Source: Kiritimatiellia bacterium
Lineage (GTDB): Bacteria > Verrucomicrobiota > Kiritimatiellia > RFP12 > DVOR01
Length of the DNA stretch: 64,000 nt
Direction of reading: 5' to 3'
Assembly (NCBI GenBank): GCA_017558005.1
Contig: JAFYWN010000018.1
Coordinates: forward strand, 3,696 to 67,695
The notes beneath the pieces were generated by a model. The model was given only the letters and a program-made list of their open reading frames with translations. It searched no databases and was not told the DNA's origin. The position numbers and the translations under genes were made by a program. Positions 11,962-56,299 of the stretch are shown piece by piece. Every line of letters starts with the position of its first letter. Position 1 is the stretch's first letter.

Positions 11962-12675
11962 TTAAAGTCCTTGCGTAATGGTGAGCGAACCCAAACGGGC
12001 CACATAGACTGCGACTTCGGTCGCATCAAAGAGGGTGGGTCCCGAGGTCAACATTTCGGAAAGGTTGAGGTGTGAACAGATCTTGACCTCATCAATTTGC
12101 TGTGGCGTGGAGAGGAATTGTGGCCCCGCGAAGCAAAGTACGCCATGGACGTCATCCGTCGCCGTCTCAAGATAGTCATTGAGTGCCGAGATGAGCGTGC
12201 GGACTTGGAGGATGGGCGACTTCATGAGCGGTCGGCCATTGGCAAGTAGCTGTCCATTATCAATGGAGACATCGCCACGCCAATGTTTGGTCTCAATCAC
12301 GAAAATGCCTTGGGGCCCCACCGCAACGTGGTCTACATCAGAACCATCGGGCAAAATTAATCCATTGAATACCGTCCAAGTGGCAGGTAGGCGAACCAAT
12401 TCGCCTGCGACCATCTCTTCTCCGCGTGCGCCCTTGAAATAACCATAAACAAGGTTCGCATGGTGAAGTCTAAAGAGGAAGAGGCAGGCAAAGGCCGCAA
12501 GAAAGAGGATGAGACCAATCCACCACGGCAGAATATCCATATTACCTAATAAGACCCCTGCGGCGAAGCCAAAGAGCACGCCGAAAAGGAGCACCGGAAT
12601 AAAAATGCGGCGGAGGCCCCGCTTACGGGCGGCATCTCCGGGGATGCCACGCATGGTTGCACGCGTTTCTGTCAT
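11962..12675 (-). CDS. NERD (nuclease-related) domain protein with two N-terminal TM helices
   Basis: GARGEEMVA...DVDHVAVGPQGIFVIETKHW is the NERD PD-(D/E)xK-like pattern. Confidence 0.78.
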   Translation of the reverse strand: MTETRATMRGIPGDAARKRGLRRIFIPVLLFGVLFGFAAGVLLGNMDILPWWIGLILFLAAFACLFLFRLHHANLVYGYFKGARGEEMVAGELVRLPATWTVFNGLILPDGSDVDHVAVGPQGIFVIETKHWRGDVSIDNGQLLANGRPLMKSPILQVRTLISALNDYLETATDDVHGVLCFAGPQFLSTPQQIDEVKICSHLNLSEMLTSGPTLFDATEVAVYVARLGSLTITQGL

Positions 12676-12684
12676 AAACTATCC

Positions 12685-13797
12685 TTAACGCAGTTTTCTA
12701 AAGAGGACAATTGCCGCAAATCCGAAGAAGAGCGAGGGCAACATCACTGCAATCGTTGGCTTAATCCACCCTTGGTTGGTGAGCAGCATCGCCAACGCCG
12801 TAATTGCATAGTAGGCAAGGAAGAGGCTAAGGGCCAACAAAATGCCACGGAATACGGATTGACGTCCTGATGCAATCCCTGCAGGAATTGCAAAGAGGGT
12901 CACCAAGATGATGGAGAAGGGGGCGGCGTAGTGGTTGTACGTCAAATAGGAGTCTTCGTGCTTTTGACGACGGGTCAAGCCCGTACGTTCACGTTCTTTT
13001 CGGTTAATCTTTCGGTCTGCCGCAGAGGAGAATTCGGCATCGGAATTTTGAACAACGATTTGACGCGGAATGATATCCATTACATAGAGTTGCTTGATTG
13101 CCGAATGAACGGGCTGATTGTCTGGCGGTGCAATCACTTCATCGAGTTCATTGAAATAGGTTGCCTTCACACCACCCTGTAACCACCATTCATTGTCTAA
13201 CCAACGTGCCTCAGGTGCTTCGTAAGTAACGCGGCGGGAGCCGTCGTCACGAAAGAGCGTAACGCGCACATCGCGCAAGACTTCCGGTTTGTTTGGGAGG
13301 AATTCGCCAATCACTAATTGGAAGCGACCAGAGGGATCAAAGTAGGCGCGACCCTTTAGCGGTTCACGACCCGTTGAGCGGAAGTCTGAGTTCTTGATCA
13401 CCATTGCACGTGCCGCGGCGGTGGGCTTGAAGAACTCCGTGTTGAGGAAGGAGAGCCCCGCGGCGAGGCAGGCGGTTAAGAGCACGGGCGCCACGATGGT
13501 CGACATCCCAATGCCACCTGCGCGCATTGCAATGAGTTCGCTATGACGGCAGAATTGCCACATGGTGTAGAGCGTGGACAAAAGGAAGACTGCCGGCAGA
13601 AGCCACTCTAAGTACATCGAGAGCGTGCCGATGATAAAGTCGCTTGCCACCATGAAGGTAACTGCCGACTTCGGATCAAAGCACGCACCAATGAGGTCAA
13701 AACTCATGAAGAGAATGGTCAATGCGCAGAGCCCAAAAAGGCACATGGTTGCCGGAAGGGCAAAACTACGTAATACATAACGGAAGAGAATACTCAT
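12685..13797 (-). CDS. LptF/LptG-family LPS export permease
   Basis: LPAVFLLSTLYTMWQFCRHSELIAMRAGGI; 3 TM + periplasmic domain + 3 TM; ends PSLFFGFAAIVLFRKLR. Confidence 0.82.
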   Translation of the reverse strand: MSILFRYVLRSFALPATMCLFGLCALTILFMSFDLIGACFDPKSAVTFMVASDFIIGTLSMYLEWLLPAVFLLSTLYTMWQFCRHSELIAMRAGGIGMSTIVAPVLLTACLAAGLSFLNTEFFKPTAAARAMVIKNSDFRSTGREPLKGRAYFDPSGRFQLVIGEFLPNKPEVLRDVRVTLFRDDGSRRVTYEAPEARWLDNEWWLQGGVKATYFNELDEVIAPPDNQPVHSAIKQLYVMDIIPRQIVVQNSDAEFSSAADRKINRKERERTGLTRRQKHEDSYLTYNHYAAPFSIILVTLFAIPAGIASGRQSVFRGILLALSLFLAYYAITALAMLLTNQGWIKPTIAVMLPSLFFGFAAIVLFRKLR

Positions 13798-14345
13798 TGT
13801 CCGACGACCTTTCCAAGTGAGAGTGCGGCGATGATGCAGAGCACACCGGCGAGTGTAAGGAGTGCCGCTACGGCAAGCCGAAGCGTGCGATATTCCGACA
13901 GGCGTTCGCAGGTGACGCGAACCGTCCAGGGATGAAAGACGGCAATCATACCGAGGGTTAAGCTAATGTACCCAAGCGTAATCGGAATCAGACGAAGTGT
14001 GGTTACATAGTCGCGCGTGAGCAGGATGACGGGCATCGGCCAGAGCATCATCAATCCGCCAATGGCGCGTGCGCACAAAAGATTGTCCAAAAAGATGCAA
14101 ATCAAGGGCGTAAGCACCACGCAGGCCACGAGTAATTTGGTCGGCGTGAGGAAGGCCAAGAAGTCAATTGGATGCATCCGAAGGGTCAGGTAGGTCCACG
14201 TCATGCAGAGGAGGGTCAACGTAACCCCTGCGATGCGATGGCGTGGCAACTTCAGCAGGGCGGTCTCGGCCTTCGGCAGAAAGAGTGCGCCGCCGAGCAG
14301 GAGAAGAATCACCGCGAGGGTGAGGATTGCGACTTCAGCAGTCAT
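13794..14345 (-). CDS. Hypothetical multi-pass membrane protein
   Basis: Hydrophobic ORF translationally coupled on both sides; start moved to MTAEV at 14345. Confidence 0.6.
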   Translation of the reverse strand: MTAEVAILTLAVILLLLGGALFLPKAETALLKLPRHRIAGVTLTLLCMTWTYLTLRMHPIDFLAFLTPTKLLVACVVLTPLICIFLDNLLCARAIGGLMMLWPMPVILLTRDYVTTLRLIPITLGYISLTLGMIAVFHPWTVRVTCERLSEYRTLRLAVAALLTLAGVLCIIAALSLGKVVGQ

Positions 14346-15519
14346 GCGTTGCCTCCTTTTGTGCCTTTTCTGCACCTTCGGTTTCGGGCATATGCACAAA
14401 GCGTTCGGTAGAGGCGCGCCATTCATCCCACGAGGCCTTGATGAATGCCGTCAATGGGATGGCGAGTAGCAACCCCAAAAAGCCGGCAAGTTGCGTCCAG
14501 AAGAGAAGGGCGAAGACGATTTGCCAGGCGGAGAGTTTCATGCGATTGCCCTGAATGTAGGGCTGCATAACGTAACCATCAAAGGTTTGAATCACACAAA
14601 AGACGGCAAAAATGCCGCAGGTGTAAGCAAACCCCGCATGGAAGAAGGCCACCGGGAGGGCAACGCAAAGGCCCGCCGTGACGCCAAGGTAGGGGATAAG
14701 ATTAAGCAGGCCTAAGACAAAGCCGATGATAAAGCCGTTGGGCAGTCCAAAGAGTTGGAAGGCCGAACCATAAAGGACGCCCTGGATGGAGACGTCAATG
14801 ATTTGACCACGGAAGTAGGAGACCATGATCTCATTGAAGTTGTGGAAATAACGCGCCATCGCTACGCGGCCACCGGTGCTGATGAAGGGAAGCAAACGCG
14901 CAAAATCGTCGCCACTCAATGGCTTCTTCATCACGAAGATAATCCAATAGAAGAAGGTGAGCAACCACAACATTGCTGCCGACCCCGCAGAGAAAACTGC
15001 GCCTCCCATGTGGACGCCTTTACCTGCGACTTCCATTAATTTCGACCAAGAGAGTGCACCGTCTTTTCCTAAGACATCAGAAAGATTGGGCAGGACGTTT
15101 TCAACGATGTCAGCAGAGTCGGGAAAGGCCTTTGTGAGGGCTTCGCGAATCCCTTCAACAATGCGCGGGAGCGCATGGGCGAGGTTGCTACCTTGTTCAA
15201 CGATAAATGCACCGAAGAACCAACAGAGTAAGAGCAGGGGAATTAAAAAGGAGAGCGAGAAAGCAATCACCGCCCATACTTCTTTACCGCCAAACCAACT
15301 CCGAAGGCGTGCATACCAAGGGCGTGTCAGCAGGCTTAGGAAGAACGCCACAATGACCGGTCCCACGATATTGAGAAAATAGTTCATCCCCTTTAAGAGC
15401 CCCATTAAGAAGAGGACGACGCTGATGACCAACGTTGCTCCGCAGAGGAGGGTTAGGGAGGCGGTAATAATCCGATTTTGAGCGGATGAAAAGGTAAGTG
15501 TACGTTTGGACTGGTCCAT
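14335..15519 (-). CDS. AI-2E (PerM) family transporter
   Basis: YFRGQIID, GLLNLIPYLG, QTFDGYVMQPYIQG, GFLGLLLAIPL. Confidence 0.85.
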   Translation of the reverse strand: MDQSKRTLTFSSAQNRIITASLTLLCGATLVISVVLFLMGLLKGMNYFLNIVGPVIVAFFLSLLTRPWYARLRSWFGGKEVWAVIAFSLSFLIPLLLLCWFFGAFIVEQGSNLAHALPRIVEGIREALTKAFPDSADIVENVLPNLSDVLGKDGALSWSKLMEVAGKGVHMGGAVFSAGSAAMLWLLTFFYWIIFVMKKPLSGDDFARLLPFISTGGRVAMARYFHNFNEIMVSYFRGQIIDVSIQGVLYGSAFQLFGLPNGFIIGFVLGLLNLIPYLGVTAGLCVALPVAFFHAGFAYTCGIFAVFCVIQTFDGYVMQPYIQGNRMKLSAWQIVFALLFWTQLAGFLGLLLAIPLTAFIKASWDEWRASTERFVHMPETEGAEKAQKEATHDC

Positions 15520-15520
15520 G

Positions 15521-16294
15521 TTAATTTTCCTTCACGGAGAAAGAGGCAGAGCGGATGGTAGAAATGCACAACTTTGTTACGCGGCGCATGCCATCACGTT
15601 GGATACGAAATTCACGTGGCACCCACCGTCCTTCTTCACGACCGATGCGTTGCACCCACATGCGGCGCACGGCACGACCGTGTGCATCGGTTTGTTCGGT
15701 CTGCACCAAATATCCAGTAGAGATGTCAATCCACAAAAGAATGGTGTGGAGCCCTGTGACGCTCTCTGGCGGCAGGACTTCAAGGACGACACAGTTGCGT
15801 CCGCCCTGACGCGCTTTGAGATTGCGCGAGGTAAGTTCTTCTTCGGAGAGTTGCCGCACGTCGTTCCACCAAAGGTAGTTGAAGGTCAGGTCGACCCACG
15901 TTAAATCGCTGTCACCCACCGGGGTGTTGAGGCGCACATCTTCAATGACCTTGCCGTCAGACCCCGTCAGGGCCAATGTCGTCTTGCCATTGGCACGCGT
16001 CAAATGGGCGTGTTGCAATGGGGTGGGATCGTCTTCTTTGAAGATTTTGCAGGTTGCTTCCGGATTGCCTGCGCGCCAATCAAGGGTCAAGGTATACGGA
16101 CGCACCACGGCATTTTGCCCACGGGCTTCGGCTGTCTCAAGGGTGCCTGCCACGTCAATGTGTTCTTGTGGGAACATACTGCGCGCCTGAATGAGCATCA
16201 TTTTGGGCGTCAGACCATCAATTGCGTTCTCTGCGTGTAGAAAACTTCCGCAGAAAAGCAGTGCGAGGAGGGGAATAAGGGTGTGTTTCTTCAT
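15521..16294 (-). CDS. Outer-membrane lipoprotein-sorting (LolA-like) protein
   Basis: Signal peptide; GDSDLTWVDL, LLWIDISTGYLVQTEQTD, WVPREFRIQ. Confidence 0.62.
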   Translation of the reverse strand: MKKHTLIPLLALLFCGSFLHAENAIDGLTPKMMLIQARSMFPQEHIDVAGTLETAEARGQNAVVRPYTLTLDWRAGNPEATCKIFKEDDPTPLQHAHLTRANGKTTLALTGSDGKVIEDVRLNTPVGDSDLTWVDLTFNYLWWNDVRQLSEEELTSRNLKARQGGRNCVVLEVLPPESVTGLHTILLWIDISTGYLVQTEQTDAHGRAVRRMWVQRIGREEGRWVPREFRIQRDGMRRVTKLCISTIRSASFSVKEN

Positions 16295-17397
16295 AAGCGA
16301 TTAACCCTGCTTAAGAATGCTGGTGTAAACTTGGCTTCAGAAAGCTTTCTGAGCCACAACGCACGAAGGATGTCGTAGTTCAGGAGGTATTCTTGACGGC
16401 AAATGGGGGGCAACGACCCTAATGCGTGGGGCGTTTCCAGATTGAGGAGGCTCTGTGGACAAAGTGCATCGCGAACGGAGTCAAAGCAGTCATTGAAGGC
16501 GTATGCCGGATCGTCAATGGGCTCAAGCGCACCACAGGAGCAGCCTGTCCAGTAGGAGGAGAGGAGGTTTTGCGCTTCTCGTTCAGGGACAATTAAGGCG
16601 TGGCGGCAAAGGAGAAGCGCACGCAGTAATTCGTCGTAAAGGTGGGCCACGCGATCATGGGCCAACCGCATCCGTGCGCGCATTTCCTGACGGGCTAAAC
16701 GAAGCAAAAAGGCTTTATAGTCTCGCACGATGGCGTCGGTCGGCAGGTTGAGCGAAAAACGATTGTAGAGAATGAAAATGTCGCCAGCGGGCGGTTCTTC
16801 ATTCGGCATGTATTCCGTTAGGACGCCCTTAACTTCTGCCGCGCGACAGAGTTGAGGCAGATAGTTGAGAGAGGCTAATCCCGAGAGGTGAATCCAACTG
16901 CGAATGCGCAGCCCCGTCCCCGTCAGTGTCGGTTGGGAGGTCAGATAACCGAACTGTTCGTCGTATGCGAAATGAAAGACTTCTGCGAAGCGATCGGTAA
17001 AGCGTTCCAAATCGGCTACCGCTTCATTAAAGTCAAGTTCGGCACTGGTGACCGAGAAGGTAAAGTGGTTGCAGGCCATCAGTTCACACCAGAAGGTGCG
17101 AATGCCGCTATCGCAGGCGACCTGAAAACGAAGCAGGCGATAGGCAGGGTGACGTTCTTCGACATCCGCAAGGCCATAACGATGCTCGGCGATGTGTGCA
17201 AAGGCGAGGTCATCCGTCAAATCATCAAAGGGATGAATGTCCGCAATTTGGGTGAGCCAGGCTTGAATCGGCACGGTCGTCGCACGCGTGGATTGCGTTG
17301 GGAAGGGATATTGCGCGACATTACGAACGAGGACAATCTGCGTTTTGAGGCAGATGGTCTTTAAGGCCACTTCTGCAGCGTGAGACTTAGGCTTCAT
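16291..17397 (-). CDS. mcsB: McsB-like ATP:guanido phosphotransferase homolog, catalytic motifs degenerate
   Basis: LVRNVAQYPFP, FAYDEQFGYLTSQPTLTGTGLR, ARQEMRAR; directly downstream of mcsA; GGAGG 6 nt before the ATG at 17397. Confidence 0.75.
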   Translation of the reverse strand: MKPKSHAAEVALKTICLKTQIVLVRNVAQYPFPTQSTRATTVPIQAWLTQIADIHPFDDLTDDLAFAHIAEHRYGLADVEERHPAYRLLRFQVACDSGIRTFWCELMACNHFTFSVTSAELDFNEAVADLERFTDRFAEVFHFAYDEQFGYLTSQPTLTGTGLRIRSWIHLSGLASLNYLPQLCRAAEVKGVLTEYMPNEEPPAGDIFILYNRFSLNLPTDAIVRDYKAFLLRLARQEMRARMRLAHDRVAHLYDELLRALLLCRHALIVPEREAQNLLSSYWTGCSCGALEPIDDPAYAFNDCFDSVRDALCPQSLLNLETPHALGSLPPICRQEYLLNYDILRALWLRKLSEAKFTPAFLSRVNRL

Positions 17398-18010
17398 CTG
17401 CATCCTCCGACGCCGTATTGTCTTCTGACGGCGATTCAAGTGCGCGAAGGGCTTGCATCAACTTCTTTGCCTCGTCAAACTGCTCTTTTTCGATGGCTTC
17501 TTGTAATTTGCGCTTCAAATCGCGAAGTTGGAACTTCGCAGAGAGCCATGCCGGCGGTTTCCCGCGAAAGCTAGTGCATCCCTGTAAATCTTTAAAGAGC
17601 ACTTTGAGTTCTTCGCGAAAGACATCGTAACAATGTGCGCAGCCCAAATGGAGTGAAAGCTGCACTTCATCTTCTGCAAGGCCACAGTGCGGGCAGGTTT
17701 TGAGTTGGATTAAATCGTCGGGTTGCGGGTCGGGACGTTCCGGATTGTCCCCAAAGAAGGGATTGTCCGCCGGCGAAAGCCCCATAAGCTTTTCTTCCAA
17801 TTCTGGCGGAATCGGTCGGGGAAAATGCTTGTCGGGTGGCATGAGTGGCGAAGCATCCATCGCTGCCACTTGAATGCCGTGCTGCTGTTCAAACGCACGT
17901 TCTCGCGCAGCGCACGATTCGCAGACATAGAGCTCTTCGCGCACACCCGCATCGGTCTGACGATAGAGCACGGTCTCTGCGTTGTTTTGATGACAAAGTT
18001 CGCATTTCAT
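17387..18010 (-). CDS. mcsA: McsA-like protein (CxxC motifs plus UVR domain)
   Basis: MKCELC, VCESC, CPHCG, LGCAHCY, LQEAIEKEQFDEAKKL. Confidence 0.83.
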   Translation of the reverse strand: MKCELCHQNNAETVLYRQTDAGVREELYVCESCAARERAFEQQHGIQVAAMDASPLMPPDKHFPRPIPPELEEKLMGLSPADNPFFGDNPERPDPQPDDLIQLKTCPHCGLAEDEVQLSLHLGCAHCYDVFREELKVLFKDLQGCTSFRGKPPAWLSAKFQLRDLKRKLQEAIEKEQFDEAKKLMQALRALESPSEDNTASEDADEA

Positions 18011-18027: not shown

Positions 18028-18564
18028 TCAATCGTTTGTGCAAAACGCCTGAATCTGCGCAAAAAGTTCCTCTGGCTCTGGCAGGCGACCCGTTCCCGTA
18101 ACACCACAGGCCAAATCCCCCTCAGCGGGCGTCAACATCTTGGCGCCACGCGCCATTAATGTCGCTGCATTAGCTTGCGTAGCGGGGTGTTGCCACATGT
18201 GGGTATTCATCGAGGGGGCCAAAAGGAGCGGCTTCGTACATGCCAGCGCCGTTTGGGTCAATAGGTTGTCTGCCAATCCATTCGCCAACTTTGCCATTGT
18301 GTTTGCCGACAGCGGCGCAACGACAAAGACGTCACACCAATCGGCCATCTCAATGTGGCGCGGATGCCAATCGGATGATTCAGCGAAGGCGGAACGTTCC
18401 ACCGGATTCTGCGAAAGCGTACGCCACGTGATTTCACCAACGAAATCCAGGGCTCGATCCGTTGCCACAATGCGCACATTCCATCCCGCGCCCTTCATCA
18501 AGCGAACGAGCGTGCAGACTTTGTAACAGGCGATTGCGCCAGTAATGCCGAGTAAAACGTTCAC
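18028..18564 (-). CDS. coaC: Stand-alone phosphopantothenoylcysteine decarboxylase (CoaC flavoprotein half of CoaBC)
   Basis: GITGAIACYK, VAPLSANTMAKLANGLADN, APSMNTHMW, LACGVTGTGRLPEP; ends without a CoaB domain. Confidence 0.86.
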   Translation of the reverse strand: MNVLLGITGAIACYKVCTLVRLMKGAGWNVRIVATDRALDFVGEITWRTLSQNPVERSAFAESSDWHPRHIEMADWCDVFVVAPLSANTMAKLANGLADNLLTQTALACTKPLLLAPSMNTHMWQHPATQANAATLMARGAKMLTPAEGDLACGVTGTGRLPEPEELFAQIQAFCTND

Positions 18565-18593: not shown

Positions 18594-19223
18594 TTAGAGC
18601 AAACCGCCACGCACCAAGACAATGTCACGCAGACGACGATAGGCCAAATCCAATTCGTCATTCACCACACGATAGGTGAATTCACCTGCGCGATCCATCT
18701 CACCCTGAGCATTCTTCAGGCGCAATTCAATCGTTTCCTTGCTATCCTCAGCACGCCCTTCGAGACGACGACGCAATTCTTCAATGCTCGGCGGCTCAAT
18801 AAAAATGTCCGTAAACCCTTCACGGAGGGGATCACCCGCAGGCAATGCCGCGATGTAACGGCGCACCAAGTCCGCGCCCACCACGTCAATGTCCAATAAA
18901 ACACTCTGCCCTTCGGCAAACGCCTCGCGAATCGGATCTGCAGGCGTGCCATATGAATTACCATGCACCACCGCATGCTCTAAAAGAAGCCCATCCTTCA
19001 CGCGACGATCAAATTCCTCCTGCGTCAGGAAGAAATAGTCAATGCCATCCTCTTCCATGCCACGCGGAGCACGCGTCGTGCAAGAGATGGAGTAAGTGAT
19101 TTCGGGAAATTCTTGCAACAACAAATCGCAAAGCGTTGTCTTACCAGTCCCACTCGGGGCGCTCATCACAATCAATAACGGTTTCATCAGTCTTCTCTTT
19201 TTCCGTTGGTTTTCCATAAACAC
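18594..19223 (-). CDS. gmk: Guanylate kinase (start may be 19187)
   Basis: SAPSGTGKTT, SCTTRAPR, EDGIDYFF, YGTP, LDIDVVG. Confidence 0.96.
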   Translation of the reverse strand: MFMENQRKKRRLMKPLLIVMSAPSGTGKTTLCDLLLQEFPEITYSISCTTRAPRGMEEDGIDYFFLTQEEFDRRVKDGLLLEHAVVHGNSYGTPADPIREAFAEGQSVLLDIDVVGADLVRRYIAALPAGDPLREGFTDIFIEPPSIEELRRRLEGRAEDSKETIELRLKNAQGEMDRAGEFTYRVVNDELDLAYRRLRDIVLVRGGLL

Positions 19224-20503: not shown

Positions 20504-21772
20504 ATGAATCTGAAATCCCTAATGGTGGCAGGCGTGAGCCTCGTGGCACTGATGGTGCAAGCGGCTGTGAATGTGACCAACGTGAAGGTCCAGCAACGTT
20601 ACCCCTGGAATGGCAAGGTAGACATTGATTACACTGTAACCTGTGATGATGCAGATGCCGACATCTGGGTCTATCCCATGGGCTTTGACCAAGATTCGAA
20701 AGCCTCCATGGCCTGTCGCGCCCTTGAAGGGGATGGGGTTGGAGCGCCGGTGAAGGCGGGTACCCATCGCATGACGTAGGATGTCTCAGCAGACTATCCG
20801 AATTTTAACTCCACAGCCTTTACTGTTAAGATGACCGCCTTAACAGGGGGGGCGCCCTATTTGGTGGTAGATTTGAGTGGTGGCGTAGATGCGCAGACCT
20901 ATCCCGTGAGCTACCTCTCCAGTATCCCCGCTGGCGGCTGGAGTGAGGAATACAAAACGACTAAACTCGTCCTGCGCCTCATTCCGCCAGGTACCTTCAT
21001 GATGGGCAGCCCCACCGATGAATTGGGACATGGTTGGAGTGGTTCTAATTACGAAACACTTCACCAGGTCACCTTGACGCAACCCTTCTATATCGGCGTC
21101 TTTGAAGTGACCCAGAAGCAGTACCAATTAGTTATGGATAGTGCTCCATCTGGCAACAAAGGTGATGCACGCCCAGTGGAGCGCGTTGCATATGACTATA
21201 TCCGTGGTACGGTTAATGGGGCGGCTTGGCCGAAGCATAACCAGGTGGATGCCAATTCCTTTATGGGCCGCTTACGCAGTAAGGTGAATCTGCTCTTTGA
21301 TCTGCCAACGGAAGCGCAGTGGGAATATGCCTGCCGCGCAGGGACCAGTACCGCGCTCAATAGCGGAAAGAATTTGACCGCGACAGGTAGTTGCGCTAAT
21401 ATGAACGAAGTCGGACGCTATAATTCCAATCAAAATGATGGCAAAGGTGGTTATAACAACTTTCACACAACGGTTGGCTCCTATCTCCCGAATGCGTGGG
21501 GGCTGTATGATATGCATGGTAATGTCGCCGAGTGGTGCTTAGATTGGTGGCAAAACAATCTTGGCGCTAACGCTGTGACCAATCCTAAGGGGCCGAATTC
21601 GGGGAGTTATCGTGTCATGCGTGGCGGCGCGTACTCTAACTACAATAGTTCAGGTTATGCTGCGGCGTGTCGCAGTGCCTATCGTAGCTACTTCCACAGC
21701 TACAACTATCCCTACCCTGGCGATGCGGAATACTACTATGGCTTCCGTGCGGTTTGCCTCCCCGTAGAGTAA
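20504..21772 (+). pseudogene. Secreted FGE-sulfatase (C-type-lectin fold) domain protein interrupted by an in-frame TAG at 20777-20779
   Basis: ORFs 20504-20779 and 20831-21772 are in one frame, separated by 17 sense codons. Signal peptide; PPGTFMMGSP, LPTEAQWEYACRAG, PNAWGLYDMHGNVAEW, RVMRGG, GFR. Confidence 0.8.
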
Positions 21773-21832: not shown

Positions 21833-21932
21833 AGGCTGGCGATGTGGGGTGTGTCTGTCATGAGAAATGCGAGCGGTCTTTGGGGGAACTCCTAAGGACC
21901 GCTATAGGACTCAAAACGCAAAGGACGTAAAG

Positions 21933-24900
21933 ATGACTACGCAAAAGACTTTTCGTGGAGTATTCCAGATGGTGTTGTTCCTTTTCTTGGGGTTGATGGC
22001 GCCTCAAGTAAAGGCTTCAACGGTTGCGCTTTTGAGTGATTCGAATACTGCAACGAATTGTACTGTGACGATGCAGGGGGTGGATGAGCAGCACAACCCC
22101 ATTTATTCTGTGATGCCGTGGGTGGAAAGTTCGCCGCGGATTCGGTTTGAGTCGCGTGCGTGGGCAGAGGAGGTGCGTTCTGCAGCATCGGCAGATCCGA
22201 CGGTGGTTGTGATGGGTGGGCGCTTGGGCGGGACTACGCCCACCTGGACCTCTGATAAAACCTTTTTAGTGATGAATTCGGTCTATGTGCCGAGCGGGGT
22301 CACCTTGACGATTCAGGCGGGCACAGTGGTGAAGTTCTGCCCAGGGACCTTTATTAAGATTGAAGATGGGGGCGCTTTAAATATCGTGGGCGCTGAGGGG
22401 CAAGATGTCATTTTGACGGCGGCGAATGACAATACGGTGGGCAGTCAAATTGTTGGGTTTGACGAGACACCCATCACGTTTGGCGGGATTGTGATTCAGT
22501 CGAGTGCGGCGAGTTTTAGCGAAAATGGGTATGTGCAGACACGTGGGTTTAAGTTTGGGAATTTCCCCACGTTGACATTGAATAACACGACCGCCTTTGC
22601 GTCGGGCGGGGTGGCGCGTATTCCCGTGACGCTCAATGGGGTGACGCGTGAGAAGATTTTTTCCATTGATTGGGTGGCCGAAGTCGATGGCGAGGCCTTT
22701 ACTTCGGGTAAGCTCACGTGGTCAAAGACGGGCGAGGGGACGAAGACGATTGAAGTGACTTTTGATGAGGCTTTTGCGTCTGCGCACGATGGATTCACGA
22801 TTCGTGTGGTGGCACATCGTGGGTGTAATGTCTCTTCGGAAACGTGTGCTGTGACCTTGAGTCAATGGGTAACTTTACCCATTGTGACTGGAATGTCAGA
22901 ATCCGCTGCAGTGGTCTATGAGGCGCGTGGGACTGCGACGGGCAAGCTCGTTCGTGGCGAAGTGACGCTGGGTGAACTCAAAGGGGGCGCAGCAACGCAG
23001 TGGGATACCACTGGCCTTTTGGATGGTTGGCAGACGGCAACTGTAGGTACAAATGCGACGGAGCTTTTGGTGCTCAATGATGCCACGATTGCGATTGAAG
23101 GGGGCCGTTTGGCTGCCGATACGACGTGGGATAACACGGTGACGCATTTGGTGCGCAATAGTGTCTATGTGCCGAGTGGGAAGACCTTGACGATTACGGC
23201 TGGTACAGTCGTGAAGTTTGGTGAAGGCACCTTTATCAAGGTGGAAGATGGCGGCAAGCTTACTGTCGTGGGTGCGGCAGGTCAGGATGTGATTTTCACC
23301 CCAGCGAATGATAACACTGTGGGGACAACTGTGCCCGGATTGGGTGATGAGACGATTACCTATGGTGGCGTGTGGGTGCAGTCGGGGAGTGCGACGTACA
23401 CGGATAATAGTTATGTGCAGTTGCGTGGGTTCAACTACGGGAGCTATCCCACGTTAACCCTAAATGATGCAACGCTATTTGCGACCGATGGAGTGGCCTA
23501 TTTGCCTGTGACGTTGAATGGCGTCACGCGAAATGCCGCATTCTCAATTGAGTGGGAGGCAGTGGTTGATGGTGAAGTCTTCCAGACGGGAGCATTGACT
23601 TGGTCTAAGACGGGCGATGGGACAAAGATTGTCGAAATTCCCTTTGATCGCACGTTTGGTGAGGCGCATGCCACCTTTACAGTGCGCATTGTAACGCATC
23701 GCGCGTGTAATGTGGGCCGCGGCGAGGCGACAGTCACCCTTTTGAAGCGTGAGACTTTAGCATTAGCAACCGATATCGCAACGTCACCTGCGGCACGCTA
23801 TGAAGGTCGTGAGGGGGAAACGGCAGCGATTGTGCGTGGTGAAGTAACCTTAGGCGAGCCCGAAGGGGGCGCAGCAACGCAGTGGGATACCACTGGCCTT
23901 TTGGACGGTTGGCAGACGGCAACTGTCGGCGAAAGCGATGCTGAACTCTTGGTGCTCAATGATCCGACGATTGCCATTGAAGGTGGTCGTATGACCGCGG
24001 ATGTGACGTGGGATAACACGGTAACGCATTTACTTCGTAATAGTGTCTATGTGCCGAGTGGGAAGACCTTGACGATTACGGCTGGCTCCGTTATAAAGTT
24101 TGGCGAAGGCACGTTTATCAAGGTGGAAGATGGCGGTAAGCTTAATGTCGTGGGCGCCGCAGGTCAAGATGTGATTCTCACCCCAGCCAATGATACTACA
24201 GTAGGGGCCCCTGTGCCCGGATTGGGTGACGAGACGATTACCTATGGTGGCGTGTGGGTACAGTCGGGAAGTGCGACGTACACGGATAATAGTTATGTAC
24301 AGTTGCGCCAGTTTAATTACGGGAACTATCCCACGGTGACCCTAAATGATGCGGTTGCACTGCGGAAGAATGGTGGCATTTATTTGGCGTTGACCTTGAG
24401 TGGCGCCACGCGCAATCAAGCCTTCTCTATTGACTGGAAGGCAACCGATGATACGGCGAAACTGGGACAAGATTATGCAGTTGCCTCTGGCTCGGTGACG
24501 TGGTCAAAGAGTGGTGAGGGGACGAAGTGGATTTATATCCCCCTCAACACAGATGAAGTCGCGGGAGAATCGCGCACCTTTACGGTGTCGATTGACGTGG
24601 CACGTGCAGTTAATGTGGCGCGTGGCGTGGCAACAGCACAGATTGATGAGTATGAAAATGCGGGCTTGAATGGTGACGAAGTGACGGTCACGGTGGGCAC
24701 TGAGTCCGCTGCGGCACCAATCCAAGAAGATATCGCAGAGCAGGTGCTCTTCTTGAACGACGTGGAAACAATTCAGTACAGTGGCCGTTGGCAGAAGTAT
24801 CCTGCAGAAGAAGCAACGAAACTGCGCGTCTCTTTGGCCACGGATAACGGCGTGACCGTCCTGAAGGAGACCACGCCAGACGATACAGGCGCATTTGATT

Positions 24901-27900
24901 TAACGCTCGCAGATTGGCCCGTGGGTTACTATACCTTGTCACATGAGGTTGAAAATGACTATGGCGAAGTGGTCGCCACGATGTCAAAGTCGTTTAGTAT
25001 TCTTGATCATGAAGATTATGAATGGCACGCTGGCACGTTGACGCAGAATGAACGCTGGACTGCGGATAAGGTGCATGTGGTTTATTCCACGGTCTATGTA
25101 CCAGCATTGTATACACTCTTCGTAGAACCCGGTGCCGTGGTGAAGTTTATGACGGGGGCGGGCATTGATATCTCGCAAGGCGGCGCCTTCTTTGGTGACT
25201 CCATCATCTTTACCCATGTGAATGATGATACGATTGGTGGTGACGTCCTCTCGGATGGGTATACTGTCGCGCCGCCGATGGATGCCTACTTCTTGAATGG
25301 TAGCTTCACCTTTGGTGATGATACGGAATTGCGTAACATTACTCAGAAGACTGCGCTCTCAGGTACGATCTCTTCAGATAAAAAGCTCTCCCGAGGATCG
25401 GTGTATCGTGTCTCTGGGACGTTGACCATTGCCAGTGGGGCGACGCTGACGATTCCTGCAGGAACGGTGCTGAAGATGGAGTCGGGGGCTACAATTAATG
25501 TGAATAGTGGTGCCACACTAAAAGCAGAAGGGACGCGCGCCCAACCCATTATCATGACCTCCATCAAAGATGACTCCGTGGGTGGAGACACCAATGGCGA
25601 CGGGAATAAGACAATGCCACAACCTGGTGATTGGCATCAGATTCGGGTCGCTGGAGGTACGTTTAATGCGAGCAACTTGTCAATGCTGTATTTAAGTAAT
25701 GGCAATAATCAGGGTGGTTTATTTGTGACAGGCGGAAGTGCGACATTAGATTTGTGCACAATCGCTCATTGCAAGTATGACGCGATGCGTTCCACGGGCG
25801 GTACGAGCTATGTTGTAAACTCTATTTTCACAGATGCATCAATTGGTGTGGCGCCGAATGGTGGATACGCCGAATACGTCAATTGTGTATTCCACTCCTT
25901 AACCACTGCGGTTCGTTGGCCTACAGGTAAATTTGTAAACTGTATCTTTAGTGAAGTTGCCTCTGTTTTCTTTGATTCTACAGGTTCAACTCCCATTCAA
26001 AATTGTGTTCTTTGGAATCCACAGGGATATGGGCCTCAATCAGTGAGTGTTACTGGCGCAAACGGCAACATTTGGGGCGATCCGCTCTTTGTGGATCCGA
26101 TGAATGGCGACTTCCGCATTGTGGAAGGGTCGCCGTGTGTGGATGCCGCCGATTCGATCGTGGCACCAGAAGTAGACTATTATGGTCAGCCACGTATTAC
26201 GATGACGGAGCAGGAAGAAGGCGCAGAACTGGTCGGTCAATTGGCAGATATTGGTATCTGCGAAGTGATGCCGCGTGACATCACCAGTGATATTGACTTG
26301 GTGCCGCTTAGCGTGCGTACGGCTTCTGAAGCAAAGATTGGTGAGCTACTCTTTGTGAAGTGGGAGGTGCAGAATGTTGGTGGTGCAGAGGTCTCAACTG
26401 CTTGGCGTGATACGATTCTCTTGGTTTCGGAGAGCGGTTGCACGGTGGCCTTGGGCGACAAGGTCGCAGGGAATCAGATCGTTGCAGGTGGTACAGTCTT
26501 CTGTTCGGGTTACTTTACGGTGCCTGCCATTGAAGAAGGCACATGGTATGTGAAGGTGAACGTCAATAGCTACCGCGACATCTTTGAAGGGTCGTTAATT
26601 CAAAATAATGCGTTGACGGGGGATCGTCCGATCACCCTTTCGTTGGACGCATTGGATGCGAATACCACGACAGAAGGCGTCGTGAATGCGAATACACCGA
26701 AGGTCTTGAAGTTTACCTATGACGAAGGTGACACCAATCGCATGATGACGGTGAAGGTGCCTGCAGGTGTCAAGGTGACATGGGGCTTCGATTTCGTGCC
26801 ACAGGGCGTCGCTAATTCGGGCTCGATGATTGCTGATGCCAATGGCGCCACGTTCCGCGTGCCTGAAGATGCTACAGATGTCTATGTCGTCATCGAAAGC
26901 GACACAACTGCAGAGTATGAAGTCTCGACCGACTCCACACAAATGGTGGTCACAAGTGTCTATCCGATGACGCTTCCCTCAAGTGGCAAAACGACCCTGA
27001 CCATCACCGGTGCAGGCTTTGATAAAGCATCCTCAATCGTTTTGTCAACAGGAGGCAAGGACTATGCCTTTGAATCGTTTGTTCAAAATGCGATGGGGAA
27101 TCTTGTCGCAACGGTGGACTGTGCCACCCTGCAAGCAGGAGCAGTGTATACCCTCACTGTCTCTGATGAAAATAATGCGGTATCTTTGACCAATGCCATC
27201 TCTGTCACAAAGGCAGAAGGTAAGGGTGAATTGGTGGCCAACTTGATTCTTCCTGAAAGTGCACGTCAAGGACGTATCGCAGTGGGGTACATTGAATACA
27301 CCAATGTTGGAACTGCTGATATGGACGCGCCAATTTTCAAGGTGATGGGGTGGCGTGAAGGTGGTCAAAAGACGGATATTGAGACGGCGCTATCTACCAC
27401 AATTGACGGTGAATTTACAGGTGAAATTCTCCTTGTAGGTATTAGCGCAACTCACCCAGCAGGCTTACTGAAGATTGGAGAAACGAATCGAATTCCTTTT
27501 TATTACAACGTTAACAGTGCTTTTAGCTTGAGATTGGCTGCGATTGACGCACAGTCGACATCTACACGTGATAGTATTTATCCTACATGGCAGTCGTTTA
27601 GCGAGGCAATCTCTGATGCAACAACAGAATTGAATCGTTTTGGAGAGTGTTTTGATTATAATGAAATTTATCGAGTTGCCATGCGAGCTGGTGTTGGTAA
27701 CGTTGTTACTACATTGCGTGGGCAAGTCTATTCAACTATAAGTGAGAGTCCTTGTGCGAATGTTACTTTACAGGTGTTTGAGTCAAATGCTGTCTTGTTG
27801 GAGAATATAACAACAAATGAAGATGGGTATTTTGAAATTAAGAATCTTAAAGTAGATGAAACATACACAATAGTTGCGAAAGGTAAATATCAATTTTCAA

Positions 27901-30900
27901 CAAATTGGTGCGCTAAAACTGCATCATTAGGAAGTGTAATCTTTTGGGTAGATCCATTAGGTGAGTTTACCTGTTCCGTAAAAGGTATTGCTGCTGATAA
28001 CGTTAATATTGTAGCTGTTGAAGTTAAAACAGGTCAGCGCGTGGAGGCTGATTTTGAAAACAATCTCTTCAATATAAAAGATTTAAGAGATGGCGAATAT
28101 ACTATTGGTGCTGAAATTAATGGGTATTATTGTTTAACCGACAATTACAACGTCACTGTTGATGATGGCGTAGCCTCTATTTCAAATGTTGAATTGGAGT
28201 TTGTCCCTTCTGGAGTCGTTGTTGGTACTGTCTTGAATGAAAAGGGAGTCCCTGTGCCCGCAGTTCAGTGTTTTGTTGAAAGAGAAGACGATGGAAAACG
28301 GTATGAGTTTTATTCAGATGAAAATGGACAATTTATAATTAACGTGCCTTCTGGCGTCTATATTGTAAGAACAGAAACTAACTATTCGCTTATCAAAGAA
28401 TATAAGATTACTGTAGTTAATCAACAAATTTCGCAAAAGGAGTTTATCGTTACGCCATGTCCCTTCATGCTTAAACCTGCAATGGGAATTGCTCCATTTG
28501 AATGTTCGTTGAAATGGAAAAAAGAATTTAATAATTATCCCGAGGCGATATCATTTGAATGGGATTTTGATAGTGACGGAGTCGTTGATTCAATTGAAGA
28601 AAGTCCAAAATGGACGTATACGAATGCGGGGGTGTATGACGTTACTTGTAATGTCACATTTGTTGATGGTACGCAAGTATTCTTTGCAAAAAAAGATGCG
28701 GTAGATGTATTGGCAGAAGAGATTGAAATACTTGCTGATGATACAGTGAAACTTGACAAATGGAGTGGTTGGGATATCATTGACGCAAGTGACGAATATA
28801 TCACAGTAAAATTTAATGAGCATTGTATCGCATCTTACTTGGACGTCGGAACGAAGATAATTCTTCCCGCGAACCCACTTTCACCATATAAAATTCTATC
28901 GCTTGAAAAGGTGGAAGACGATATGTTGTTGTTACAAGTTGAACCCATTTTCGTTGAACTTGCGTATGATACACTAGCAAAAACTTTTTCAGTAGAATTG
29001 ATGGCTGATGATAATGGATTTTATAATGGTGGCCACACGAAGTCGCTAACGCTCTCATCAGAAATTTCAAAATCTTTTTTGAATGACAAGCTTACGATTA
29101 CGGGGGGGGCATCCATTGGAGGTACTGCAACAGTTTTGATATATGAAAAAAAGCTTGAAAAGTGTGCTTTGAACGTAGAGGCAAAAGCAAGCCTTACAGG
29201 AACATTTAAAGTAGGGACAAATCTTAAAAAGGATGATGTAAAGAAGAAAAAGAACAAGAAAAAGAAAAAAAAGAAAAACGAGGATGACGATAGTAGATGT
29301 ACGATTGCGGAAAAGGTCATACTGGTTGGCTATGTTCCCATTGAGCTTAAACTTTACATCTTTGCAGATTGCGAGATTAGTATGTCGGGATCTATTACGA
29401 CAGAGGCGACTGCTTCTGTGGAGGCGGGATATTCTAAGGTTAAAGGGTGGTTTTCTGATGCTGAAGGAGATGCGAGTCTCGCGGACTTGAGTATAAATGG
29501 AAACGCTTCATTTTTCTTTGGTCTTGGGCTGGATGTCATCGCAGGGATGCCCAGCACCAAATTGACGAAATCTGTAAAACTGTCAGCATTAGACGGGACT
29601 TTTAAAGTAGGCCCTAATTTTTACGTTGATATTAAATATCATCCATCTGAGGATGAAGTGGCAGATGAGTACAAAATAGGTGCTGATATTAAATATGAGT
29701 TTACTGCAAATCTTTTAAATATTAAACTCTGGAACTTCTTGGATTGGAAAGCTCTTACATATACGGACGAACGCGCATGGCATATAATGATGTATACATG
29801 GAAGACTCCTATACCGTCATTTTATTGTGATGAGATTTATAGAGGGCAAAATCTTTCAACCGTTGAATTTAAACGAACAACTACGGTAGATCCTTTAGAG
29901 ACTCTGTTTAAATCCGGCTATTGGGAGATAAATGGTTGTGAATATCCTATTTCAACGTGGAATAATCAAACGGTGAGCCATGACTTCTATATCCCATCTG
30001 AGGATTCGGCAGATTCTGTTGAATATGATGTTGCGCTTTATGAATCATATAAGCCAGGGAATCCTCTATTTAGTAAATTAGTTCTGCCGGCATGTAAAGC
30101 AAATCGAACGACACTAACCTTTGGGACGGGGAAAGGTGAGGACGGTGGAGCAGGGTGGACCGGACTTGGAGGACATCAGGGAATACTTCCTCAATCCTGC
30201 GACCCCAATGAGATGGCGGGGCCGTTGGGGATTGGCGACCCGGAGACGGAACGTTTCGTCAAGCCGGGTGATTGGATGACCTATACGGTCTACTTTGAAA
30301 ACAAGAGTGATGCAACGGCTGCCGCGCAGGAGGTGCGTGTCACGAATCCGTTGAGTCAGTATCTTGATTGGTCGACCTTTGAGATGGGCGAAGTCTCCTT
30401 CAATAATCAAATTGACCTCGGGCTGAGTGGTAAGCAGACTGGGGCCAGTGAAGTCGCCTTGAATAACACCGCTTATAAGGTGAAGACGACTGTCGCTCTT
30501 GATCAAACAAAGGGTGAGGTGAATTGGTATCTGCGTATTGTGGACCCCTCCACGGAAACAACGTGGCCCGAGGATGTCTATGCGGGCATCTTGCCTCCCA
30601 ACGACGAGACGCATCGTGGTGAAGGTTACTTGACGTATCGCGTAAAGGTGCGTGAGGATGTACCCGCAGGGGTGCGGATTGATAATTCGGCAACGATTAT
30701 CTTTGACTATAACGAACCGATTGAAACAGACCCCGCGTGGTGGAATAGGGTGGTGCCGAGTCAGGTGCCGATGTCAATTTCTCCTGAAGCAACCCTCGTG
30801 GATGAGGGGGAAACGATCGAGGTTAAGGTCTTTGGCGGTGATTTGACGCGGCCGAGTTCGGCGCAGGTCTATTTGTCGTATCACACGGCAGCGGCTGCAG

Positions 30901-33900
30901 ACTTGGATTTGGCCAAGGCAACGGTGACGGGTGTCAATCAGACAGCGCCGAGTCGTACAAAGTTGGCCTTCCCCTTGACGTTGAATTGGGCCACGGGTGA
31001 AGTCGGCGAACAGACAATCCGAATCCCTGTGAAGGCAGACAAGACCGTGGAGGATGAGGAGACCTTTACACTTCAGCTCGCCAATCCAGAAAATATGGCA
31101 TTGGGGAGCAAGCAGGTGTGTATGGTGACGCTCCATGACACGAATGAAAAGGAACTGAAGGCAGCGGTGACGCCTTATAAACCGAAACCTGGCGAGTCGC
31201 CAGTGTCTCATCAGGTGACGGTTGGGCGGAATGATGGCGCTGCGGGCTTCGTGGCGGGGAGTGGTGAATATACCGCTGGCTCCAAGCTAACTCTCACCGC
31301 AGAGGCACGTCCGGGTTATGCCTTCGTGGGATGGGCCTTGAAGGAGGATCTTGAAAACCTTCTCTCCACCAATCCGAAGTATCAGATTGTGGTTGGTGAG
31401 GATGGCGACTATGTAGCTGTCTTTGAACCCATTCCCTATGTGCGTGGTCTTGCGACTCCGGCGGAGGGTGGTAAGGTGACGGGAAGCGGTTACTGTGCCG
31501 ACGGCAAGAAGGTGACCTTGAAGGCAAGCGCAAACAAGAACTTTGTCTTTAAAGGGTGGTATGCCGCCTCTGTGGAGAATCCGCAGACGCCTGATGAGGC
31601 GGTGTGCGTGGCAACAACGCCCTCGCTTGTGATTGATCGCACGGCAAAGCCGACGGCAAATTCAAAGACGTCAACGACGTTGACGGATATTGATGAGGAT
31701 GTCACCTTCTTTGCGCTCTTTGAAGGGGATCCACGCTTAGGTCTGACCATGATGCCTGAAAGCGCAGGTAAGGTGACGGGGGCAGGGCGCTATCTGCCAG
31801 GTACAAAGGTAACCCTGAAGGCAACGCCTAATAAGGGTTATGTCTTCGCAGGATGGTATCAGGATGAAGCCTTTACGATGCCGTGCGAATCCATGTTGGC
31901 GGACTATCGCAATCCAAGTTATACCTATGTGACGGGTGCAGCGGATGCAACACTCCATGCATGCTTTGTCCCCGCAGAAGAGGATCAGGTCTTAACATTA
32001 ACCGTTCAGAATAAGGTGAATGACGAGATTGCAGAAACCTTTACAATTAACGGAAAGGCTGAATTTGTACTTCTGGTGGACTCAAAGTCCTTGCCAAAGG
32101 CAACCGTGACAGGGCTTCCCACAGGCATGAAGTTCACGGCAACGCCTGTGATGGTGAAGGGGTCGAAGACCGAGGTGGAATATCCCATTAATACGATTTA
32201 TGGCACACCAACCAAGCCGGGCGTTTATACCGTAACAGTCTCGCTCACGAATAGCACAATTAAGAAGGCGATTACAAAGACCTTCGAAATTAACGTGCTG
32301 AACTTTACGGATGATTTGATCAAAGTAAAAGATTCTTACGGTCCATATGTTCCAGGTGTTTCGTATACCGTAGAGATTCCAGAAGCCGCAGGTTGCACGG
32401 TGACAGGTTTGCCCACTGGCATGAAGTGGACGGCAAAGGATATTATAGATTTAAAAACGAAGGAAGTAACAACGCCTGCGAACTCGGTCTATGGCATTCC
32501 GACGACACCTGGCAACTACACGGTCTATTTCACGAAGACGGTGGATAAGGTGAAGCACACGGCTACAGCAACCTTCATCGTGGGGCCGTATCCGCAGTTA
32601 ACCGTGGACGTTCCTGTGTGCACAGACGGAACAATTGGCGGTAAGGTGACGGGTGCGGGTGGTTTTGCCGCGAATAAGAAGGTTACCTTGAGGGCAACGC
32701 CAAACAAGGGCTATGTCTTCGCCGGGTGGTACAAGGATGCTTTCTTTGAAACACCTTGCGATTCCACGATAATGGACTATCGCAATCCAAGCTATACCTA
32801 TGTGATGGGTGATTGCGACACGCAATTCTATGCCCGATTCGTCACCAAGGAAGATGAAGCGGATTACAAGATGGGAATCGCTTTGTATCCATTGGATGCG
32901 CCGACTTTGGAAATTGATGAACTCGTTTACAAGGCGGGTGAAGCAATTTTGCCGATTTGGGTGATGGTGGATTCGCTCACCTTGCCAAAGGTGACCGTGA
33001 AGGGTCTCCCGAAGGGAATGCAGTTTGATGCCAAGACCTTCACGATTTCGGGAATGCCAACGCAACCTGGCGATTACGTCGTCTACATTGAAGCGGTCAA
33101 TGCTTCGAAGTCGTGTGTGGCAGTTGCGGAATTCTACTTCACAATCACACACTATGATGCACATGGGCTCCATCAGGATGAAGAAAAAGTCCTGATGGTA
33201 GCCGCCTTTGAAGCGGGTGAAATCGTTTTGGATGAGAACTTTAGTGACTTGTTGAACAGCGTTTCCGTCAAGTCATTCAAATTGCCCAGTGGCTTAAGCT
33301 ACGATTCAAAGACGAATTCCATCAAAGGCAATGGTACGCTAAAGTGTGGCACCTACGTCGCAACACTTACCGATACTGAAGGCAAAGTGACCTCCTTCAC
33401 GCTCGTGGCGGAACTTACCGACGAGGATAAGTTCACGTATCGGAACGCCCTATCACTTAATCCAGAATATGCTTATGGTTATGAGGGTATTGTTCAAGGT
33501 GTTAACGCAGAGGTCTTTTGGCTTGAGGTTCTAAAATCTTGCGATGATTTTGGAGGTGGTTCTGACGTTTGTTTATTGGACGCAGAAGAGGCTAAGGCAC
33601 TAAGTATTAAGGTCTCTGGTTTGCCGACGGGATTGAAGGCAAACTTTGAAAAAGAGTATGTTGAGGAGTGGGAGGGTGATGAATATGTGAGAGATGTCTA
33701 TGCGTGCGATCTTTGGTTGGAAGGTAAGACCTCGGCTGCGCCTGGAGATTATCATGTAACTGTAACCATCACGAATAGTCGTACAGGACAAGTGGAACAT
33801 GTTCCTTCATTAATTCGCATCTATCCTCCACAACCTATTCAAACGACTTGGAACGCTTCGTTTTCAACAGAAATGGTTGATGAAGAAACTGGCGAAGTGC

Positions 33901-55986: not shown

Positions 55987-56063
55987 CGGAGCGTAGCGCA
56001 GCCTGGTAGCGCATCTGCTTTGGGAGCAGACCGTCGGGGGTTCAAATCCCTCCGCTCCGACCA
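55987..56063 (+). tRNA. tRNA-Pro (anticodon TGG), CCA encoded
   Basis: Acceptor stem cggagcg/cgctccg, D-arm gcgc-agcctggta-gcgc, anticodon arm tctgc-tttggga-gcaga, T-loop gttcaaatc. Confidence 0.97.
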
Positions 56064-56257
56064 CCTTTTTAAGCGACGATGTATCCATCGCCGCTTTTTT
56101 ATTTTTCCTTCCCATTAAATCCTAATTGTCCCTCCGCTGCGGGTAGGGTGGGGGCTAACTTCGCCACACCTTCAAGCATGGAGCGCCGCACACCTCAAAG
56201 CCTCTTCTGCCAGACGCTCCTCATTTTCTCTGCCCATAAAGCCCTCAATCCTGAGAT

Positions 56258-56278
56258 AAAAGGGCGAAACCCTTTTTT
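56258..56278 (+). terminator. Terminator-like hairpin that is also the left inverted repeat of the array
   Basis: aaaaggg-cgaaa-ccctttttt. Confidence 0.6.
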
Positions 56279-56299
56279 AATTTCTAAGAAAGTGAATCC

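Follow-up and report, generated by a model that had tools for sequence, protein, structure and literature searches.

McsB is, to our knowledge, the only dedicated protein arginine kinase known, and ever since its initial description as a ClpC adaptor it has been disputed whether it also has a non-enzymatic adaptor role. What an McsB might do without its kinase residues is the question raised by a 64,000-nucleotide stretch of DNA (the window) from a Kiritimatiellia bacterium (assembly GCA_017558005.1, contig JAFYWN010000018.1, positions 3,696 to 67,695 of the forward strand). The minus strand of the window carries an mcsA homolog (17387..18010) and, overlapping its end, an mcsB-like gene (16291..17397) encoding a 368-aa protein that has the McsB fold and is devoid of the arginine kinase catalytic residues. 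An earlier interpretation based on the nucleotide sequence (the sequence-only reading) had proposed that this is a pseudokinase retained as a scaffold or ClpC adaptor rather than a gene in decay. The data presented here show that the protein is a folded, selected, single-copy McsB ortholog that lacks catalytic and phosphate-binding residues and is coupled to McsA. The interpretation we favor, and consider reasonably probable though well short of certain, is that a pseudokinase-McsA complex was left after the phosphoarginine (pArg) system had been dismantled, and that it keeps a phosphorylation-independent role in this uncultured, gut-type Kiritimatiellia genus.

The McsB-like protein lacks catalytic and phosphate-binding residues

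Motifs were compared using HMMER alignments to solved McsB (6fh1, 8wtb, 6tv6) and MAFFT, with B. subtilis residue numbers taken from the alignment to 8WTB and cross-checked against the residues named in PMC11046695 and PMC8370763. Frequencies refer to a 174-sequence alignment containing 133 canonical McsB and 32 members of the clade to which the protein belongs, hereafter the kinase-dead clade. Residue numbers of the McsB-like protein itself count from the ATG at 17403, i.e., they are two higher than those from the ATG at 17397. Unless stated otherwise, all features described lie on the minus strand.

The substitutions listed by the sequence-only reading at SSRIRLARN, NEEDH, SCPTNVGTG and VRGIYGEG were all reproduced in these alignments. 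The first of these motifs is replaced by KTQIVLVRN (17320..17346), in which R29 and R31 of B. subtilis McsB become Gln and Val and R34-N35 are retained; canonical McsB have Arg at these two positions in 90% and 89% of sequences, and the clade has no Arg there, with Gln in 91% of its members at the first. NEEDH becomes MACNH, exactly at 17065..17079, with the loss of both E120 and E121, replacement of Asp by Asn and of the next Arg, R125, by Thr. The clade consensus at this site is M-x-x-N-H-x-T, compared to Glu (95%), Glu (94%) and Arg (92%) at the corresponding positions of canonical McsB, and an invariant, clade-specific Glu is found two residues before MACNH (WCELM). In the remnant of the catalytic loop, SQPTLTGTGLRIRS (16897..16938), SCPTNVGTG reads SQPTLTGTG, so that Cys167 is replaced by Gln and Asn170 by Leu; the GTG and Arg R176 are retained, and after them come an additional Arg and Trp that are specific to the clade. 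Cys at the C167 position was absent from every clade member in the residue table. Both the NEEDH motif, with E121, and C167, the catalytic cysteine, are established elements of the McsB active site (PMC11046695).

The remnant of the VVRGxYGEGS loop, VLTEYMPNEEPP (16789..16824), has TEYMPNEE in place of VRGIYGEG. The alignment of this loop is ambiguous, with HMMER and L-INS-i disagreeing with fast MAFFT, and the R207 position is without Arg either way, being occupied by Glu according to HMMER, L-INS-i and the secondary structure of the model, and by Lys according to fast MAFFT. In the C-terminal helical domain, NYDILRA (16360..16380) has Tyr in place of R337 and keeps D338 and the following R-A; across the clade, the R337 position is variable and D338 mostly retained. 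These two residues form the pArg receptor site of canonical McsB (PMC8370763). The autophosphorylation sites R190 and R194 are likewise not conserved in the window protein. Among the phosphate-binding Arg residues R29, R31, R125, R176 and R207, only R176 survives. We take these five to be the equivalents of R124, R126, R229, R280 and R309 of arginine kinase. The losses in the catalytic motifs were common to all 32 clade members, and canonical McsB (n = 133) retain the same residues at 88-95%, indicating that this is not a chance pattern.

In comparison with McsB of B. subtilis, G. stearothermophilus and S. aureus (6TV6, 6FH1-3, 8GQD), the protein thus shares the two-domain fold and an mcsA immediately upstream, and it retains the McsA-binding loop, the GTG loop, the motif His, R34-N35 and the R-A of the C-terminal domain, but it is without R29, R31, E120/E121, R125, C167, N170, R207, R337 and R190/R194. 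It also differs in having approximately 17 extra residues in the C-terminal domain and in not being encoded beside clpC or ctsR.

The McsB-like protein is a single-copy ortholog under purifying selection

Family profiles matched the McsB-like protein with low scores. The Pfam ATP-gua_Ptrans model gave 45 bits (cut-off 22.4), with only profile positions 72-201, the C-terminal part, being aligned, and the NCBIfam McsB equivalog models gave 90-98 bits, below their cut-offs of 381-500. The best solved relatives were McsB of G. stearothermophilus and B. subtilis (6fh1, E value 7e-15; 8wtb_A; 6tv6). An AlphaFold2 model built from the clade alignment had a mean predicted local distance difference test (pLDDT) score of 88.5 and a predicted template modeling (pTM) score of 0.87, and its top Foldseek matches in the PDB were full-length McsB chains (6tv6, 6fh1, 6fh3 and 8gqd; template modeling scores of 0.7-0.77 at 20-21% identity), which outranked animal arginine kinases. 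As judged from this model, the McsB fold is kept, with both a kinase-like domain and a helical dimerization domain.

Nearly all sampled Kiritimatiellia genomes (147 of 151) had one match each to ATP-gua_Ptrans (PF00217), and most of these matches exceeded 185 bits and had every canonical motif. The window genome and each of five other genomes of the genus likewise had a single PF00217 match, and the search for a second, active mcsB that the sequence-only reading had called for found none in these six genomes. The mcsB-like gene is therefore an mcsB ortholog and not an extra copy. Searches of protein collections delineated a kinase-dead clade of approximately 27 clusters at 50% identity, with members scoring >190 bits and canonical McsB ≤152 bits. 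The open reading frames (ORFs) in these clusters were all either apparently complete or fragments at contig ends, and no frameshifted ortholog was seen among the clade members examined. In the phylogenetic tree, the clade was monophyletic with a support of 100 and fell within the Kiritimatiellia McsB, its stem measuring 2.6 substitutions/site. A genome from a sister genus of the same family (G135) encodes a half-degenerate McsB (NDHDH, SPGD) at the same gmk-flavoprotein-mcsA-mcsB position, and an approximately unbiased test did not reject this protein as the sister of the kinase-dead clade (p = 0.35). The simplest reading is that McsB degenerated in place within one family.

An apparent grouping of the clade with further degenerate sequences termed degC (G114/G134) was flagged in the tree as a meeting of long branches and was dropped. 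A candidate McsA-McsB fusion in degC was also rejected; the McsA match sits in another frame of the same strand, indicating that the long open frame is an artefact of high GC content.

Rates of nonsynonymous to synonymous substitution (dN/dS; NG86) were estimated from two pairs with unsaturated dS of approximately 0.7, and pairs with saturated dS (e.g., the window with L028 or L007) were excluded from the conclusions. The mcsB-like gene had values of 0.143 and 0.156, and mcsA had 0.069. Among the neighboring genes, the values were 0.09-0.15 for the LolA-like gene and 0.016-0.054 for gmk and the flavoprotein and AI-2E genes. It could be argued that the mcsB-like gene is a non-functional relic in slow decay, its stop codons yet to come. 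This would fit the position of mcsA and the mcsB-like gene as the least conserved of their cluster, the very long stem branch, and the profile scores far under the curated cut-offs. Yet a relic would hardly be expected to have dN/dS of 0.14-0.16 at unsaturated dS, some 27 deep clusters with full-length ORFs and the same conserved blocks, a confidently modeled fold, a conserved overlap with mcsA, and fusions to McsA (both described below), and we regard slow decay as highly improbable. These features, together with a single copy in six of six genomes and conserved synteny, uphold the original proposal of a pseudokinase that is retained rather than decaying.

One annotation source labels a clade member "protein arginine kinase". 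This automatic annotation is wrong for the clade, and it follows that the presence of mcsB alone is not a safe basis for inferring pArg-dependent proteolysis.

McsA is retained and altered together with the McsB-like protein

The mcsA homolog encodes a 207-aa protein that combines two CxxC..CxxC zinc fingers with a UVR-like helix at the C terminus, and most likely starts at the ATG at 18010 (MKCELC...), matching the end coordinate given in the sequence-only reading. The McsB-like protein likely starts at the ATG at 17397, given the spacing of a GGAGG ribosome-binding site located 6 nt 5' of this codon within the end of mcsA (17404..17408) and an overlap with mcsA as seen in relatives. The sequence-only reading was correct in pairing a full-length mcsB-like ORF with mcsA: both are on the minus strand, and the mcsB-like gene overlaps mcsA over 11 nt, up to and including the mcsA stop codon (17387-17389). 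An identical 11-nt overlap was found in the relatives L007, L013, L014 and L015, and suggests translational coupling.

The McsA homolog scored 74 bits against NCBIfam McsA, below the cut-off of 210, and matched the McsA chain 8wtb_B with an E value of 2e-11. Its description as intact holds for the zinc fingers, since all eight of their Cys residues are present and conserved clade-wide, but not for the L3 motif H-x-G-K-x-P, for which the window has F-R-G-K-P-P and other clade members have FKGPPP, YQGETP, YAGDAL and other variants. In the McsA-McsB holoenzyme (8WTB/8WTC), L3 of McsA touches McsB (PMC11046695). The clade McsA has instead gained a new motif, RERAFEQQHGIQVAAMDA (17852..17905), which directly follows zinc finger 1 and is strongly conserved only in the kinase-dead clade, as well as a Pro-rich insertion.

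On the McsB side, conservation within the clade is strongest in the block FAYDEQFGYLT, corresponding to the lambda-2 segment that docks zinc finger Z2 of McsA in 8WTB; the lambda-2 contacts to McsA comprise Q160, G-Y-L-T165-S166 and P168 (PMC11046695). This segment is therefore conserved with respect to the holoenzyme. Furthermore, two independent fusions of McsA to the McsB-like protein occur in the clade (P0012, P0047) and argue for a physical complex of the two. Given that conservation is highest in the McsA-binding loop and in the zinc fingers of McsA, the heterocomplex is probably the functional unit. In the holoenzyme, McsA arranges the catalytic Cys loop (PMC11046695); the McsB-like protein has no catalytic Cys. 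Two further single-chain McsA-McsB fusions (P0110, P0141) keep an SSR(V/I)RLARN N-terminal motif.

The clade also has conserved residues of its own, namely E107 (of WCELM), N112, H113, R168, W170, H172, E190 and R215, of which those from E107 to H172 are invariant and polar and lie close to the old active site. These residues, perhaps along with RERAFEQQHGIQVAAMDA of McsA, might make the McsB-like protein a repurposed enzyme with other chemistry or another substrate. The location of such invariant or near-invariant polar residues in and around the former active-site strands, the retention of R176, the motif His, GTG and R34-N35, and the co-evolution of McsA, with its new conserved motif and insertion, are all consistent with this idea, and a long stem followed by purifying selection fits a shift in function. 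However, with four of the five phosphate-binding Arg gone, the protein is unlikely to bind a nucleotide in the known mode, and most clade members have Glu at the R207 position. The neighbors are housekeeping and envelope genes that suggest no candidate ligand or reaction, and their linkage is inherited within one family and was not seen downstream of mcsB in G135. We consider a repurposed enzyme to be an unlikely explanation. About equally doubtful is a broader proposal, in which McsA and the McsB-like protein would form a re-engineered module, with a new ligand-binding or catalytic site (E107, N112, H113, R168, W170, H172) and a McsA re-tooled through RERAFEQQHGIQVAAMDA, that acts independently of pArg and possibly of ClpC. 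Were it true, the independent degenerations of McsB elsewhere in Kiritimatiellia would indicate that McsAB ancestrally had an activity not requiring the kinase, which became the sole one after loss of the kinase.

Glutamates of the ClpC pArg pockets have been lost in the same genus

The usual operon in Kiritimatiellia is mcsA-mcsB-clpC, with clpC directly downstream in most genomes. In the family of the window, clpC is located elsewhere, unlinked from mcsAB. This agrees with the earlier statement that neither ctsR nor clpC is nearby: CtsR was not found in the window genome, and the clpC-like gene is on another contig (C18). CtsR was also found in 0 of 61 Kiritimatiellia genomes, so that its absence is a trait of the class and not a peculiarity of this locus.

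The ClpC-like unfoldase of the window genome (C18:12450-15086, 879 aa) matches S. aureus ClpC with 769 bits and has a VGF ClpP-docking loop. In its N-domain, GTAH and NTTC replace the two GTEH motifs of the pArg pockets. Of six genomes from the genus, all have lost Glu106 and three, the window genome among them, have also lost Glu32; all 11 sampled lineages with canonical McsB have GTEH twice in ClpC. E32 and E106 define the two pArg pockets of ClpC, and ClpC carrying E32A/E106A acts like pArg-primed ClpC (PMC12583610). Given the loss of these glutamates, any link between the McsA-McsB-like pair and ClpC would have to be independent of pArg. In the ClpC-like protein, the acidic linker that follows the N-domain is also longer, and the C-terminal tail is basic (…KRRATKRATTSK).

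Other parts of the system were also surveyed. The only low-molecular-weight phosphatase found in the window genome and in G033 has the P-loop CHGNICRS, of the Ile type (C30:788-1210 in the window genome; L047), and the C(T/S)GNTCRS P-loop of the YwlE Thr type was present in 11 of 18 sampled genomes with canonical McsB. The activity of pArg phosphatase depends critically on Thr at this place in the P-loop (PMC7772506). A search of the window genome with PF00574 for ClpP gave only a weak, SppA-like match (C32:73537-73731). Loss of ClpP was nonetheless rejected, as strong ClpP matches were found in 40 of 40 relatives from the order, four of the same genus included; since the genome is 90% complete (2.05 Mb in 37 contigs), the missing ClpP most likely reflects a gap in the assembly. 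Neither HrcA nor MecA was found in the window genome.

Loss of the ClpC pArg-pocket glutamates along with the McsB kinase residues is particular to the genus of the window. In the canonical operons of other Kiritimatiellia, the genes are orthologous and CtsR is likewise missing, but the catalytic McsB motifs and both ClpC GTEH motifs are kept, in contrast to the window genus, where they are lost and clpC lies elsewhere. Further particular features are the unlinking of mcsAB from clpC, the McsA fusions in the clade, and the occurrence within one class of canonical McsB, intermediate McsB and several degenerate forms that apparently arose independently.

These results imply that the module of McsA and the McsB-like protein probably works without arginine phosphorylation. 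Under the interpretation favored here, both the writer (the McsB kinase) and the reader (the ClpC pArg pockets) of arginine-phosphate signaling would have been dismantled in the genus, and the eraser (the pArg phosphatase) may be gone as well. The surviving complex would then serve a phosphorylation-independent job, most likely in protein quality control, where it would bind clients or regulators as a scaffold or selector equipped with zinc fingers and might hand clients to ClpC/ClpP by direct contact in place of a pArg tag.

Several points weigh against this interpretation. Because the losses in ClpC and McsB amount to what is essentially a single shared event of the past, finding the two together carries no statistical weight. 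clpC is unlinked, and the canonical contact between McsB and ClpC uses the very pArg pockets that are mutated in the genus. The phosphatase does not serve as a discriminating third line of evidence, and was rejected as such: G049, a genome of the same order with canonical McsB motifs, also has CHGNICRS, and the Ile-type P-loop is only consistent with loss of the eraser. mcsA and the mcsB-like gene are the fastest evolving of their cluster (42% identity each to L015, compared with 93% for gmk), and constraint on them is therefore weaker than on the housekeeping genes. The L3 motif of McsA is not conserved in the clade. Finally, the clade-specific invariant polar residues from E107 to H172 named above could form a new site, and some "pseudokinases" have proved active with unusual chemistry, as in the case of SelO, which was found to catalyze another reaction.

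The unlinking of clpC also raises the possibility that the complex acts without any involvement of ClpC, either as a stress or redox sensor or anti-regulator working by way of the zinc fingers of McsA, or as a stand-alone holdase, and is now wired into the housekeeping and envelope operon from gmk to lptFG. The separation of mcsAB from clpC in this family, against the class norm, and the mutated pArg pockets of ClpC are in line with such a role, as are the invariant zinc-finger cysteines of McsA and the tight co-orientation with the LolA-like, AI-2E, LptF/G, NERD and Tsp genes that is conserved across the clade; an oxidative-stress sensor role has been proposed for McsA (PMC11046695). However, shared synteny may simply have been inherited when the genomes compared belong to one genus or family, and another family (f19) also has clpC elsewhere, yet its McsB is canonical, so that unlinking alone does not mean functional separation. 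Moreover, with neither of the known targets, CtsR and HrcA, found in the genome, no candidate regulator is at hand. We judge a ClpC-independent role to be improbable. Conversely, the part of the sequence-only reading that assigned the protein to ClpC as an adaptor appears less obvious than it did, given an mcsAB unlinked from clpC and a ClpC N-domain that has lost its pArg-pocket glutamates.

Relation to other adaptors, pseudokinases and degenerate McsB

The favored role, a pseudokinase-McsA scaffold, might have a functional analogy to the MecA-type ClpC adaptors in the non-enzymatic selection of clients and/or activation of ClpC, although these adaptors have no relation to the McsB-like protein in sequence or fold. 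It fits the pattern of pseudokinases in general, i.e., a homolog of an active enzyme that has had its catalytic residues replaced, is under selection, and often serves as a scaffold or allosteric partner. Bacterial Ser/Thr pseudokinases have a Hanks-type fold (PMC12599244), unlike the phosphagen-kinase fold of the McsB-like protein, and the same work mentions McsB only as an active arginine kinase. McsAB has been annotated in Chlamydia (PMC5177608). A full-text literature search found no description of a catalytically dead McsB. A kinase-dead McsB together with a ClpC lacking its pArg pockets, with close relatives that keep the full canonical system, offers a natural comparison in which what McsAB does independently of its kinase could be isolated.

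Degenerate McsB were also observed in other Kiritimatiellia families. Family f4 (L021-L023; G074, G085, G095) has a 285-aa McsB with GETDA and PDPYHMGCG that is sister to canonical McsB. McsB of family f5 has NFEDH and SPK, and that of family f32 has NQGSH and DPERLGTG (L024-L025 = G001, G027; L026-L027 = G114, G134). The protein of G135 (L017), with NDHDH and SPGD, is a further degenerate form. McsB seems, on the basis of these motifs, to have lost catalysis several times within one class. The other degenerate mcsB genes mostly still adjoin clpC, and the ClpC N-domain in those genomes mostly retains GTEH. Outside of the clade, scattered McsB homologs lack parts of the catalytic set (P0020, P0024, P0056, P0059, P0062, P0071); among them are a protein from a Megasphaera metagenome-assembled genome with ASPSMTGTG and LIVGV, and others with INDCNH or NGGDH.

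Neighboring genes and other features of the window

The mcsA and mcsB-like genes are part of a tightly packed cluster on the minus strand. Upstream are genes that Pfam identifies as guanylate kinase (gmk, 18594-19223) and a flavoprotein (18028-18564), an order that was also found in L007, L010-L015 and G135. Downstream, a LolA-like/TP_0789-like gene (15521-16294) overlaps the mcsB-like gene by 4 nt and is the first of a series (11962..16294) that continues with an AI-2E family transporter, a membrane protein, an LptF/G permease and a NERD-domain protein. In the clade, the syntenic order is gmk, flavoprotein, mcsA, the mcsB-like gene, LolA-like, AI-2E transporter, membrane protein, LptF/G, NERD, Tsp and dxs, and it was common to every clade member examined, down to 35% identity.

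On the plus strand, the window also contains a 4123-aa ORF with internal repeated segments (21867-34238), within which GC content drops to 0.38 at 28-30 kb, preceded by a 313-aa ORF at 20831-21772. A second local dip in GC content, to 0.39 compared with approximately 0.50 for the window, was observed at 56001-58000.

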